Source: Haliotis rufescens | Lineage: Eukaryota | Assembly: GCF_023055435.1 (NCBI RefSeq) | Contig: NW_025964223.1 | Coordinates: 27,218,001-27,282,000 of the forward strand | Reading direction: 5' to 3' | DNA: 64,000 nucleotides | Shown: positions 20,387-52,942 of the stretch, piece by piece | How the letters are laid out: each line of letters starts with the position of its first letter | Position numbering within the stretch: position 1 is the stretch's first letter | Made by a program: the position numbers and the translations under genes | The notes under the pieces: model-generated | Told to the model about the DNA's origin: nothing | The model's database searches: none | Seen by the model: only the letters and a program-made list of their open reading frames with translations

Positions 20387-20460
20387 GGGGGTCAGATACT
20401 ATCTAGCAAGAACTTGTTTACATGTGAGATTCAAGTCTTGTAATTGTACATCACTCCCCA
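20387..20460 (-). ncRNA. C/D box snoRNA copy A (DEAF1 intron 5)
   Basis: Terminal stem GGGG/CCCC, box C GTGATGT, box D CTGA, guide GCTAGATAGTA complementary to 28S UACUAUCUAGC. Confidence 0.85.
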
Positions 20461-20521
20461 GTACACATAGTGAATCTAAATACCACTTGAATTCTGATCT
20501 CAGTTGATTCGAACCACAGTA

Positions 20522-20680
20522 CAGCGATGGAAACAAACAGTTTTAGTCCACTAGTCCTTATAATGATGACATGAAGGGAAACCCTTAAAAAATTCTGCTA
20601 CAGTGCAAAAATCCTTTTGATAATTTAACTATTGGGCAGTTTGGCTAGGACTATAGGACTAGTGCCAATTTCTAATGCTG
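20522..20680. mobile_element. Short MITE (CAG...CTG termini); related copy at 62418-63256
   Basis: Shared ends CAG(C/G)GAT(G/A)GAAAC..AGTTTTAGTCCACTAGTCC and TAGTGCCAATTTCTAA(T/C)GCTG; the paralogous segment near 21266 is an empty site. Confidence 0.7.
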
Positions 20681-21139
20681 TTAGTACAACCAAACATGAA
20701 ACCAAATTGAGGATTCAGGAGTTGATTATGATAGATGAGCAGAATTAAATTAATTAAAAGAACATTTGGATTATTGAACTGTTTTGTTCTCAGTATGACG
20801 AGTGAATACTTTAACCACTAGACTACCCCAATGCAAGTGTATAACAAAATCCAATTACCCAAGCCACCTCATGACCTCAACTCTCAATTTCAACCAATTA
20901 CATGTTTGCTTATTGCTAGTTGGAAAAATGGTTCTTAACTCATACCAACACAGATGGCTTTGTCAATACACACAAAGAAACCAAGATGACCTTTCCAGTG
21001 ACCTTGACCTTCATGAAGGTCACTCAAAACTAACAACTTCATAGCTTGTTTATTGGGATGACATGTGCCGACATTTTATCTGAATACAGAAACATACCTT
21101 CCGTTTGAGTGCTTTGAAAAAAAGAGTGCTGAATCAGAG

Positions 21140-21213
21140 TGGGGTCAGATACTATCTAGCAAGAACTTGTTTACATGTGAGATTCAAGTCTTGTAATTGT
21201 ACATCACTCCCCA
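21140..21213 (-). ncRNA. C/D box snoRNA copy B (DEAF1 intron 5)
   Basis: Identical core to copy A. Confidence 0.85.
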
Positions 21214-21672
21214 GTACTCAAGGGTAAGTGCAGTTTCACTTCAGTTCTGAACTCAATTGATTCAAACCACAGTACAACCAAAAATGAAACCACATTCAAG
21301 ATTCAGGAGTTAATTATGATTAGATCAACAGTCAATTGATAAAAAGTACATTAGGACAATTGGATTGTTTTGTTATACATACAGTGCAACTGTGAAACAA
21401 AGTCTAATGACTCTAGCTACCTAGTGACCTTGACCCTTAATTTCACCCAATTATATGTTTACTTATTGCCAGTTGGAAAAATGTTCCTCGCTCCTACAAA
21501 CATGTCTGTCATTCCAACACAGGGAGTTATATTTGTAAATATATACAAAGAAACCAGGACAACCTTTCACTCAGAACTAACAGCTTCAATGCTTGATCAT
21601 AAGGATGACAGGTACTGACATAGTTTATCTGAATACACCTTCATGTTGCTGAAGAAGAGTGCTGAATCTGAG

Positions 21673-21746
21673 TGGGGTCAGATACTATCTAGCAAGAACT
21701 CGTTTACATATGAGATTCAAGTCTTGTAATTGTACATCACTCCCCA
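21673..21746 (-). ncRNA. C/D box snoRNA copy C (DEAF1 intron 5)
   Basis: Two substitutions outside the boxes and guide. Confidence 0.83.
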
Positions 21747-21747
21747 G

Positions 21748-22638
21748 TAGAGCTGCAATGAATACACTATGATGCAAATGCGATACGTATCACGACTATA
21801 TAGTAACGAAAAAGAATATTTATTCATGAATACAGCAACATGTTATCAGTTGATGTATAATTTTTTTATTCAGCAAAACAATAACAAAATAATTTTTTTG
21901 TCATGGCTTGACCATGTTGACAGTGTTAATGATTATTATAACATTATACATTTATATCATCCAAAACTTGCTCCCACAGGAGATATCACTTGGGGAAGAT
22001 GAAGCGTTTCTACACTGTAGATATTGCTGCAATGAAATTGCATCATAATGCTTTGCAGACCATTGTGACGTCATTGGTTACCATGATGTCACAATCAAAT
22101 GACATCGCTAATGGCTCTACAACTGAAGCTGTTGGCAGTACCTTTTACACTTAAGACACTGCTTATTACTGTCTACAAACTGAAAAAGAATGATGTTGGA
22201 TGATAAATAAAATCTCATCCGAGTCTCTTTTGATATCAAATATATCAACACTCGTTGATCAAAGTGGAAAAACTCCTCGGCAAGACTCAGTGTTTTTCCA
22301 CTTTTATCAACTTGTGTTGATATATTTGATATCAAAAGACACTCGGGTGAGATTCTCTGTATATATACTGCCCCTATCCAGGTACTAGTATCTGCTAAAA
22401 TGCGACAATGACCAGTGACCACATTACTGTAAAATTGAAGATAGATAAGAGTGTTGTCCTTGAAGAAATCTATGTATGCATGCATGCACATAATTAGTTT
22501 GGATGGCTTCTTAGTTAAAAAAACCTCACTTCATATTTTTTGTTATTATTTGAATCTTGTGTCCACAAATAACAAATTCAATTTATGAAGGGATACGGTT
22601 TGATTCACCGAATACACGAGTGAATCGTAACAGCCCTA
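21748..22638. mobile_element. Non-autonomous hAT-like element
   Basis: Imperfect TIR TAGAGCTGCAATGAATACAC / GTGAATCGTAACAGCCCTA; 8-bp TSD CTCCCCAG/CCCCCCAG. Confidence 0.7.
22213..22349. repeat. Long near-perfect palindrome (small foldback element)
   Basis: CTCATCCGAGTCTCTTTTGATATCAAATATATCAACAC... pairs with ...GTGTTGATATATTTGATATCAAAAGACACTCGGGTGAG. Confidence 0.85.
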
Positions 22639-22653
22639 CCCCCCAGTATTAAT

Positions 22654-49990: not shown

Positions 49991-51283
49991 CTAATTAATG
50001 TTTCATACAAAATACACCGAACACATATACACATTCATTGAGTTTCCTTTTTTTGGACTACCTTTGCTTCTGAAACACAGAACACAGAAATGGTTATTAT
50101 AGTTTTGGCAATTACAAAATATTTTGTCTTTCCTGTTACCGTGTTGTCTGTCCTGTTACCATGAATGTCTTCCCTGTCACCAGGTTTCTGCCATCTCAAA
50201 AGTTATAATTGGTTCAACTCTGCAGACAAAAATATATATAATTCATAAAACGAGTGTAATAACTATTTTTACCTTATAGAATAATGGTAGTTCCATTTCA
50301 GTGTAAGCAGTAGACAAGTTTATCGTGCATCTTTTTTCAAATAATTCCATTGTATGCATATATTTAGTCTTATAATTTAGTAAAGCCAATAAATGAAATT
50401 TTATAGCTGTTGGTATTTGAACTATGCCAAAATGCAACAACCATATCATACATTTAATTCATTTTAGATTTATGTTCAGTGACAAAAACTGAATTTTATG
50501 CACGGTAACAGCACAGACATTTGGTACAGAAATGCCAAAAATAGTTTTCTGCAAAAAGGAAAATAAGACATATTAAGCCTGCATACTTTACACTTATATT
50601 CAGTAATTGTTATGTTATTTATCTGCTCAACAAAAACATTTCAACAATGAATTCTGATTTGTTGATTTTTCATAGGCCAAAATGTTACTTTTTTAGAGAA
50701 TGACCCATATATCCAATTCAAAGGCTTTAGCCTAATCACTGTTTTATTATCGTTGAGGACAAGGCGTCAGTACTTAATCCAGTTAATCGCTTGCCTTCAG
50801 TTGTGTATTGCTGCTTTGAACAGCCACGTTTGGCTGTGGATGTTTTGATGGGCTGATTGGTGACACTTGAGCTTAAACATACACATTGTCATTGACAGTA
50901 CACACAGGACCACAAAGTGAGTTCGCTAAATCTGTTATTTTGTTATAAGCGTGTATGTCATATCCATCAGTTGTATATGATAAGCCACCAGCAAATAGCC
51001 GGGACCCAAAACACAGTTTGTTATATCCCTCACTTTGTTATAAGCGTGTATGTCATATCCATCAATTGTATATGATAAGCCACCAAATAGCCGGGAACCA
51101 AAACACAGTTTGTTATATCCCTCATTTTGTTATAAGCGTGTTCGTTAAAACCGGAGTTTACTGTACACCTTTATGTCAGCCAGACCACTGTAAATGTTGT
51201 TGAATTGTTTTGTTGTATTGAACAAGGTTTGTATAGGCTTGAAAATGACTTGGATCTGACTGTCTGGCCTTGAAATGGGAATA

Positions 51284-51447
51284 CATTTGATTCTGCCTTG
51301 AACAGGTATAACATTAGAATCTGCCTTGAGCAGGTGTAACATTAGAATCTGCCTTGAGCAGGTGTAACATTAGAATCTGCCTTGAGCAGGTGTAACATTT
51401 GAATCTGCCTTGGAAAGGTGTAACATTAGGATCTGCCTTGAAAAGGT
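51284..51447 (+). repeat. 28-bp minisatellite (CATTAGAATCTGCCTTGAGCAGGTGTAA)
   Basis: About 5-6 head-to-tail units, no spacers. Confidence 0.9.
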
Positions 51448-51691
51448 ATGAAGCTGATTGATGATCACATAGTAACATGCCAGCTATTTGAAGTAAGCCA
51501 TGTCTACTTGTCAGAATATGCTGAGAGATACCCAAAACATTGGGTACACCATGCACTATTTGTTACGTTTCCCTGCTGAAATATGTGAATGCATGCATGT
51601 AGCTATTTAATCTGAATTGTTTCAAGTTTGGCCTGTTCCGGAGGGTTCCGTGAAGTATCCAAGTAGTTGTACAGTTACCATTCTCTTTCAG

Positions 51692-51831
51692 CTGAGTTTG
51701 ATTGGGAAAAGCAACATGAAAGATTTGCAGAAGAATTGGAGGCACACTCATTTAATGACTCAAAGCAAAATGGCAATCGGACCAGGGATTCAGGCTTTGA
51801 CACAGCTGAAAAGAGCTACAGACTTCAAGAG
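51692..51831 (+). CDS. PATL1: PATL1 exon 3
   Basis: EFDWEKQHERFAEELE matches the Pat1 DW..HE motif; phase 1/0. Confidence 0.9.
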
Positions 51832-51872
51832 GTACAAAATGTTTCCAGTTGCACCTTATCATCCTTGAGTAC

Positions 51873-51946
51873 TGGGGAGTGATGTACAATTACAAGACTT
51901 GAATCTCACATGTAAACAAGTTCTTGCTAGATAGTATCTGACCTCA
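51873..51946 (+). ncRNA. C/D box snoRNA copy D (PATL1 intron 3)
   Basis: Box C 51879-51885, box D 51938-51941, same guide. Confidence 0.87.
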
Positions 51947-52626
51947 CTCAGTTTCAGCACTCTCTTCTGCAAAGTAAAATTGTTCCCTGCAGTTGGATAA
52001 AAAGTTGGTTCATATGATCCTTTAGAGTCTTTATTGGCATTTTGAAGTTGGATGTAATCATGATGAGGAGTACTAAAGAAAACAACTTCTATAGCACAGT
52101 ATATCTACACTTGACCTGATGAAGGGGCAAGAAGTAGCATTGTGCATGTATGTATGATAAGTGAAGTTGTTATCCATTATACTCCTTGTCATAATGTCAT
52201 CCTTATGGTGAAGCATTGAAGGAGTTAGTTGTGACATTCATGAAGGTCAAGGTCACTGGAAAGGTGGTCCTTGTTTCTTTGTTTGTATCAACAAACTCCC
52301 TGTATTGGTATGACATGTTGGTACGAGCTAGGAACCATTTTTCCAACTAGCAATGAGCAAACATGTAATTGGCTGAAATGGAGAGTCAAGGTTATTAGGT
52401 AGCTAGTGTCATGGGACTCTTTCAGTTGCTCTGCATTTATAAGAAGAATGTTCCCCTACAATTGCATGTATGTTCCTCAAGGTACTTTAATCTGTATTTA
52501 GTTTGTAATAGACATGGTGGTATGTAATGATTTTGGGGGCCTTCTGGAAATGGTGTTGAAGGGCTGCTTCAAGCACCTCATTATGATAATGTTCCTGTGT
52601 AATATTCTTCACTTTCTTGTCCCCAG

Positions 52627-52743
52627 GAGATCATGGAACAGAGCATCAACCACCTGGTGTTGGATGAAGAGGAGGAGCGCCACCTCGTTGACCCAGCCAT
52701 TGTCAATGTGTCTGGAAGTGCTGCCATACCATTCTCATCTCAT
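52627..52743 (+). CDS. PATL1: PATL1 exon 4
   Basis: EIMEQSINHLVLDEEEERHLVDPAIVNV contains the Pat1 DPAI motif. Confidence 0.88.
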
Positions 52744-52868
52744 GTAGGTTATCACAATCATTTGTCATTCACTTGTCACTGTGACTCACACACAAGCACC
52801 TGTTGAAATATCACTATCAACTACAATTGTCACAGTGCTGCAGTGTGTCGTTTCCATACTTTGAGTAC

Positions 52869-52942
52869 TGGGGAGTGATGTACAATTACAAGACTTGAAT
52901 CTCACATGTAAACAAGTTCTTGCTAGATAGTATCTGACCCCA
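52869..52942 (+). ncRNA. C/D box snoRNA copy E (PATL1 intron 4)
   Basis: Identical core; TGGGG/CCCCA terminal stem. Confidence 0.87.

Follow-up and report, generated by a model that had tools for sequence, protein, structure and literature searches.

The closest described counterpart of the RNA considered here is snR65 of Saccharomyces cerevisiae, the small nucleolar RNA (snoRNA) of the box C/D class whose site is U2347 of the yeast large-subunit (LSU) rRNA (PMC5699541), a position that bears the name Um2345 in the numbering of Taoka 2016. For the yeast fragment UCmCCΨAUCUAC-Um-AΨCΨAG, mass spectrometry has resolved Um, Ψ and Ψm at this base, the Um is lost in the ΔsnR65 strain, and methylation and pseudouridylation compete at U2347 (PMC5062969). 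We analyzed a stretch of 64,000 nucleotides of the abalone Haliotis rufescens (contig NW_025964223.1, positions 27,218,001 to 27,282,000; hereafter the window, numbered from its first letter), in which five short units lie in the introns of two head-to-head genes, DEAF1 and PATL1. These units are very probably copies of one expressed box C/D snoRNA predicted to methylate the 28S uridine that is equal to yeast U2347.

Among the six organisms of Table S4 in PMC11014333, the site is listed as methylated in yeast only, and the equivalent positions fly 2726, human 3851, Arabidopsis 2348 and Dictyostelium 2613, as well as the one in Xenopus, carry no methyl mark. The equivalent human base is Ψ3830, modified at 92% (PMC6182160), and its guide, SNORA62, is also present in sponges (PMC4515611); Neurospora has Ψ2309 together with an E2 homolog (PMC2780460), and the zebrafish snoRNA list contains no 3830 entry within 12 of its 17 supplementary files (PMC7668251). 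SNORA62/E2 (H/ACA) and yeast snR9 act on the same uridine as the abalone guide but belong to another snoRNA class and produce pseudouridine instead of a methyl mark. Close animal C/D counterparts are Drosophila snoRNA:CD31a-c (Me28S-C2645, Rfam RF00530), hosted by Uhg3, which guide Cm2716 (yeast C2337) and Am2724 (yeast A2345) in the same rRNA segment (PMC11014333 Tables S4 and S6).

Five intronic box C/D units and their predicted target

The 11-nt sequence GCTAGATAGTA occurs five times in the window as an exact match, compared to a mean of 0.62 in shuffled sequences, none of which (0 of 100) reached five. Three sites are on the minus strand (20397-20407, 21150-21160 and 21683-21693) and two on the plus strand (51926-51936 and 52922-52932), and every one is embedded in a unit of the form GGGGA-GTGATGT...GCTAGATAGTA-T-CTGA-CC. 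The predicted mature RNA is 68 nt long. Copies 1, 2 and 3 (20390..20457, 21143..21210 and 21676..21743, minus strand) are located in DEAF1 intron 5 (23133-19118), copy 4 (51876..51943, plus strand) in PATL1 intron 3 (51832-52626), and copy 5 (52872..52939, plus strand, ends inferred from read depth) in PATL1 intron 4 (52744-54205), all five in the sense orientation of their host gene. Copies 1, 2, 4 and 5 have the same 68-nt core, from which that of copy 3 departs by two interior substitutions.

The elements of copy 5 comprise box C GTGATGT (52875-52881), the guide (52920-52932), box D CTGA (52934-52937), and a terminal stem that pairs GGGG (52870-52873) with CCCC (52938-52941); a putative D' TTGA (52895-52898) and a degenerate C' (near 52907-52913) were placed by eye from the alignment. 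Boxes GUGAUGU and CUGA are present in all five copies, with position 7 as the sole departure from RUGAUGA, and the GGGG/CCCC stem is found in four of them, copy 4 having GGGG/CCUC plus outer pairs. A scan of the window with a model of the family returned the five copies at 40-44 bits and no sixth, the next best match scoring 8 bits, and a crude scan for any other C/D guide in the window gave no credible candidate (2 further matches, compared to 0-3 in shuffles). At sub-threshold scores (E<=10), eight of the ten weak Rfam matches of copy 5 were C/D snoRNA models. At the gathering score, Rfam assigned no family to the abalone unit and recognized in the window only the heads of two tRNA-like short interspersed nuclear elements (SINEs).

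The first-pass annotation, made from the letters of the window, had proposed a C/D snoRNA with nearly invariant cores and a variant box C, present three times in DEAF1 intron 5 and once each in PATL1 introns 3 and 4, always sense to the host. The gene models agree with this arrangement, the boxes, terminal stem and antisense element recur in all copies, and the U-ending box C is real; of the comparison with Rfam that it had suggested, only the class of the RNA emerged, through the weak C/D matches.

The guide lies directly upstream of box D and is predicted to pair with LSU rRNA over 13 bp with one G-U pair (UUGCUAGAUAGUA against UACUAUCUAGCGA), so that the pairing proposed earlier stands and its length of 11 nt does not. 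This duplex is the longest one in each LSU stretch with the exact site and is formed in four of the five LSU stretches covering the site (L067, L065, L068, L071, plus L073), L081 carrying a variant base; among 21 LSU fragments from eukaryotes, 17 have the exact site. Opposite the U of UCUAC-U-AUCUAG stands the fifth base counted back from box D, and the D+5 rule therefore predicts methylation of the 28S uridine that corresponds to yeast U2347. The snR65 site named in the first-pass annotation is upheld as a prediction by this register and by the context of the yeast fragment, and its statement that vertebrates have no methyl guide for the site holds in the modification maps examined. No animal methyl guide for the U2347 equivalent was found in the literature covered, which excluded the C. 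elegans snoRNA catalogues, subscription journals and supplements, so that a prior description is possible; the published papers that carry the guide letters appear, by title, to be primer or rDNA papers.

The abalone RNA shares with snR65 the target uridine, as judged from sequence context and the D+5 rule, and the RNA class, but it is intronic and multi-copy. Yeast snR65 is independently transcribed. No snR65 model was among the matches for copy 5 (E<=10) or for 21 homologous loci (E<=1-2), the presence of an snR65 model in Rfam 15 not being separately confirmed. We regard the abalone RNA as a probable functional counterpart of snR65; membership in the same family, or descent, lacks support from sequence models. 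The stretch 5' of the putative D' (52882-52894 in copy 5, likewise in the other copies) might pair with an 18S segment. Since the D' region is unconserved among homologs, we make no claim for a second target.

From established C/D biology, the RNA would be trimmed from the spliced intron to ~68 nt, Snu13 would bind its C/D kink-turn and be followed by Nop56, Nop58 and fibrillarin, and fibrillarin would 2'-O-methylate the target uridine. Two microRNA libraries labelled with the same species (X21 and X22, ~40 million reads) yielded five reads on a 450-nt stretch around copy 5, two in X21 and three in X22. All of them are on the plus strand, in the sense orientation, and inside 52870-52944, with none on the 117-nt exon 4 or on the intron flanks. 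If the one unclipped read of X22 measures 50 nt, every bin-sum solution for this library places two read starts at 52872, 3 nt ahead of box C, and one read end at 52939, 2 nt past box D. These few reads fit a trimmed snoRNA, though the evidence is thin. As regards the small RNA of ~70 nt anticipated by the first-pass annotation, the reads are confined to the unit but are too few, and no full-length molecule is among them.

Copy number was estimated from DNA unitig depth. In run X1, the shared core had a depth of 44.2 compared to 7.0-10.8 for single-copy flanks, the copy-3 unitig 9.9, and the unitig common to copies 2 and 5 20.2, values to be read with two provisos, since the window itself may derive from X1 and since contig depth counts copies poorly. 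These depths fit four identical cores plus copy 3, or about five copies per genome, in agreement with the low copy number expected at first pass and not with a high-copy dispersed repeat.

Look-alikes in metagenomes and the fly double guide

A metagenome scan for UGAUG, a gap of 25-55 nt, the guide and CUGA retrieved 59 loci with 56 distinct cores, in which the guide letters and the guide-box D spacing are invariant by construction of the pattern. Several features outside the pattern recur: a purine precedes UGAUG in 48 of the 56 look-alikes, a U precedes box D in 43, a UU that extends the LSU duplex is present in 30, and 20 have a terminal stem of at least 6 bp, compared to a mean of 2.0 with shuffled flanks (maximum 6 in 1000). 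From this recurrence, many of the look-alikes are judged to be real. Box C position 7 is A in 20, U in 19, C in 10 and G in 7, and the 19 U-ending boxes therefore make the abalone variant a trait of the family, a point beyond the earlier annotation. In an alignment of 28 rows chosen by hand, which covered 26 of the 56 cores, the stem was 66% paired, compared to 42% when shuffled, with rows and register picked after seeing the data; with the register one column off, pairing was 33% and the signal vanished. The D' UUGA is plausible in the abalone copies, and C' is clearer in most aligned homologs.

For 23 of the 59 loci a host gene could be placed, always on the same strand. The hosts, whose families were confirmed by Atlas searches that returned no taxon, include PP2A-B56 (7), SERBP1 (6), RPN6 (5), importin-5 (3) and SAPS (2), and none is DEAF1 or PATL1; the abalone DEAF1 and PATL1 proteins had no match in the 59 loci, so that this host pair was not seen there outside Haliotis. 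The taxon labels of the metagenome loci are best-match guesses. Ranked by identity, the top named matches of the B56 loci L006, L007 and L047 belong to the sponges Geodia and Halichondria; those of L027 and L056 are ambiguous. The importin-5 host exon is far closer to non-yeast than to yeast PDB chains. The only named close relative of the SERBP1 host has a 'Tk' gene id, which we take to denote the copepod Tigriopus kingsejongensis. Rfam gave nothing at the gathering score in the 20 of 59 loci scanned, and an E-value scan of 21 loci (E<=1-2) returned no fitting family apart from RF00530. The guide family appears to be undescribed and widespread in (likely) invertebrates, the C. elegans catalogues lying outside the comparison, and this spread beyond abalone is absent from the first-pass annotation. 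Other housekeeping genes host the guide in other animals, and it is therefore likely to be old and its abalone host pair to be recent.

Compared to the abalone guide, the D guide of fly CD31a-c is placed 2 nt further on in the rRNA and addresses an adenosine rather than the uridine; conversely, the abalone copies have no C2337 guide and no RF00530 match. Six SERBP1 loci and L022 link the two forms, in that they carry a second guide, for C2337, at D'. Both L049 and L022 match RF00530 below threshold (L049 with 35.7 bits, E 3.7e-4, gathering score 48), and one SERBP1-like host contains a C2337+U2347 double guide beside a fly-type C2337+A2345 double guide (L049:466-525 and 945-1019). On the simplest reading of these sequences, the fly A2345 guide would have arisen when an old U2347 guide shifted by 2 nt in a paralogous copy; this direction is proposed because the U2347 form is the more widespread of the two. 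Near the double guide of L022, a second C/D-like RNA (L022:784-863) has weak SNORD70 and ceN109 matches.

The single pattern match in viral contigs was rejected as chance; it is stemless and agrees with L025 in sequence length and contig size. Separately, the viral contig segment L001:4980-5080 contains ~80 nt that resemble eukaryotic LSU rRNA at the target segment of the guide, with no Rfam match.

Host genes, duplication and the number of active copies

The host genes were mapped with Haliotis proteins. DEAF1 (18259..37541, minus strand) has a SAND domain and seven coding exons (37541-37104, 32167-31955, 31099-30944, 30420-30295, 23244-23134, 19117-18986 and 18522-18259), the first of which matches a protein designated Haliotis rufescens DEAF1 with 100% identity. 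PATL1, the PAT1 homolog 1 gene (37923..62287, plus strand), was mapped over its first nine coding exons and continues further; exons 37923-37961, 40975-41085, 51694-51831, 52627-52743 and one starting at 54206 delimit the introns discussed here, and the joints between exons 3, 4 and 5 were confirmed by a spliced contig of a related organism. The 381 nt between the two start codons (37542..37922) are CpG-enriched, with an observed/expected ratio of 1.44 in 37501-37750 compared to a window median of 0.52. Judging by the short ATG gap and this enrichment, the interval is presumed to be a shared divergent promoter, as had been proposed at first pass. The abalone DEAF1 (478 aa) has the SAND domain and no MYND finger on record. 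Its mollusc, annelid, brachiopod and nemertean homologs list only PF01342, and the priapulid and scorpion ones add PF01753, a distribution that suggests loss of the MYND finger in lophotrochozoans.

Diverged flanks had been noted at first pass, and they are indeed diverged; they are not unrelated. Similarity among the 60-nt flanks of the copies is 47-72%, the mean for random sequence being 49%, and copies 2, 3 and 4 are connected by blocks of 215-530 nt with 69-77% identity. The block downstream of copy 4 (52194..52445, plus strand), a trace of inverted DNA-level duplication between the hosts, has its counterparts downstream of copy 2 (20850..21064, minus strand, 77% to 52194-52416) and of copy 3 (21370..21610, minus strand, 73% to 52195-52445). 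Because the flank blocks are homologous, the copies appear to have spread by DNA duplication, once inverted between the genes. Local duplication would have set copies 1-3 in tandem, and an inverted duplication would have moved a copy ~30 kb between DEAF1 and PATL1, in which it would stay sense because the host genes diverge; selection, probably with gene conversion, would then hold the cores alike.

The homologous flank blocks differ in 15-17% of aligned bases and the cores in 0-2 of 68, the probability of 0 in 68 under neutrality being 4e-6. Neutral evolution of the cores is rejected. The purifying selection invoked earlier is one of two processes that may account for the likeness of the cores, and gene conversion fits as well. 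This bears on the strongest competing explanation, in which the snoRNA is real and only some copies, for example those of one host, are processed, the rest being duplication passengers kept identical by gene conversion. The flank homology speaks of DNA-level duplication; the identity extends over the interior of the unit, which is not conserved between taxa, and over tracts of 85-112 nt that are 93-99% alike among copies. Furthermore, the distance of copy 4 to the 5' splice site is just 44 nt, a single intron houses all three DEAF1 copies, and no read carries a copy-specific base, so that the reads cannot be assigned to one copy and hence to either host. However, all five copies retain the boxes, stem and sense orientation, and paralog pairs in other animals are also near-identical inside with diverged flanks (1/52 differences in L015, 2/51 in L020 and 0/39 in L051; other pairs up to 19/48). 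We consider partial processing unlikely, while according it a real chance. It would alter the number of active copies and not the function of the RNA.

A contig of run X15 from organism C touches copy 1 in another way. Its 60 nt join the base after box D (52938) to the flank ~36 nt upstream of the mature 5' end of copy 1, closing a 100-nt loop at a depth of 23.4 and without GT/AG ends. The joint may reflect a duplication in tandem in organism C, an artefact of template switching, or a circular RNA; DEAF1 intron 5 of the window contains no tandem 100-nt repeat.

The window also holds several mobile elements. A decayed element of ~5.5 kb lies in DEAF1 intron 4 (24331-29956) and, inverted, in PATL1 intron 2 (42601-48235), with a fragment at 59572-61495; its copies are 76-83% alike and, like the snoRNA, have the same orientation relative to each host. 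A Pfam scan of its broken frames gave no match; they resemble those of a DIRS-type retrotransposon. In DEAF1 intron 1, a 1.45-kb element (35102-36552) with perfect 174-nt terminal inverted repeats has frames at 35340-35705, 35675-36085 and 36135-36404, one with a sub-cutoff Pox_D5 match (E 0.0013), and may be Polinton-like. Copies of a tRNA-derived SINE occupy 16917-16988, 19544-19615, 33374-33541 and 38925-39105, two of them scoring as tRNA in Rfam (30.1 bits). Inverted repeats at 9668-9818 and 12074-12220 (within 9668-12220) flank a GIY-YIG frame and a Tc1-like transposase frame, followed by a mariner-like fragment (12380-13055). Downstream of DEAF1, a further gene is marked by Sushi and PAN domain exons (1562-1834 and 7863-8486, minus strand).

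Alternative functions and significance

Several observations weigh against a methylating snoRNA as the explanation of the five units. The pairing with abalone 28S is predicted from conservation of the site in the LSU of other eukaryotes, and 4 of the 21 LSU fragments differ at one base inside the duplex, which would break the pairing. The fold of the unit is no better than that of shuffles, either by itself (z from -2.5 to 0.01 over six folds) or with flanks (z from -0.99 to 0.62). Box C of the abalone copies ends in U and C' is degenerate. There are just five reads in ~40 million, and the libraries had been cut to microRNA size; in X21 both reads begin at ~52881 (52880-52882), within box C, and none of the five can be tied to one copy. 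Some of the 56 look-alikes, with no stem and no host, are chance matches, and the provisos given above for the unitig depths, the search pattern and the taxon labels count on the same side.

A different function of a real C/D RNA is conceivable, in which it binds the site as a folding chaperone or as a blocker of pseudouridylation without methylating it. The competition between methylation and pseudouridylation at the yeast base (PMC5062969) and the absence of a methyl mark at the site from fly, frog, human, Arabidopsis and Dictyostelium in Table S4 of PMC11014333 would agree with such a role, as would the U-ending box C and the weak C'/D'. However, the guide-box D spacing is the methylating register of the yeast site in all 56 look-alikes (in which the pattern fixes it), the U before box D recurs in 43 of them, and position 7 of box C varies across the family. 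We therefore judge a non-methylating role quite improbable and retain methylation of the uridine as the predicted function.

Even less can be said for a relative of SNORD20 (U20) aimed at the 3' end of 18S rRNA. SNORD20 (RF00217) is of the same class and has 18S as its target, and its Rfam consensus shares the nine antisense letters CUAGAUAGU with the abalone guide (15.6 bits, E 4.4). This score is far under the gathering score of 43, and in SNORD20 the nine letters are in another register, 7 nt from box D, with other neighbours on both sides. In contrast, the LSU duplex of 13 bp abuts box D-1, and the 5' UU extension in 30 of the 56 homologs pairs with LSU. A link to 18S through SNORD20 is thus most improbable. 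The equally slight chance of a dispersed repeat, transposon fragment or rDNA remnant that mimics a snoRNA, suggested by a window full of repeats and by common flank blocks of the copies, is largely refuted by the depth of about five copies, the sense orientation of all five, the sense reads with box-defined ends, and the same architecture with different self-complementary stems in unrelated hosts of other animals.

The observations on abalone, the metagenomes and the fly can be combined into a broader proposal, to which we give an even chance. Sponges, molluscs and crustaceans would have retained Um2347, an ancient mark of animals, through a guide family not yet described, and vertebrates and flies would each have lost it on their own. 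The Am2724 seen only in flies would go back to a double guide for C2337 and U2347, in a paralog of which the guide slid by 2 nt, and in abalone two divergent genes would feed one guide pool. Since sponges have SNORA62 as well, one would expect in the ribosomes of invertebrates the competition among U, Um, Ψ and Ψm at one base that has so far been reported for yeast.

The mechanism implied here is the textbook one, and the guide family fills a gap in rRNA modification maps. The abalone locus clearly exemplifies how local duplication of DNA can carry a snoRNA into the two members of a head-to-head gene pair. If the proposal is true, the 2-nt shift of the guide would provide a concrete origin for a fly-specific methylation, and the site would allow a direct test in animals of the competition between methylation and pseudouridylation at one nucleotide. 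A site regarded as "yeast-only" would then be methylated across much of the animal kingdom, and the model animals would be the exceptions.

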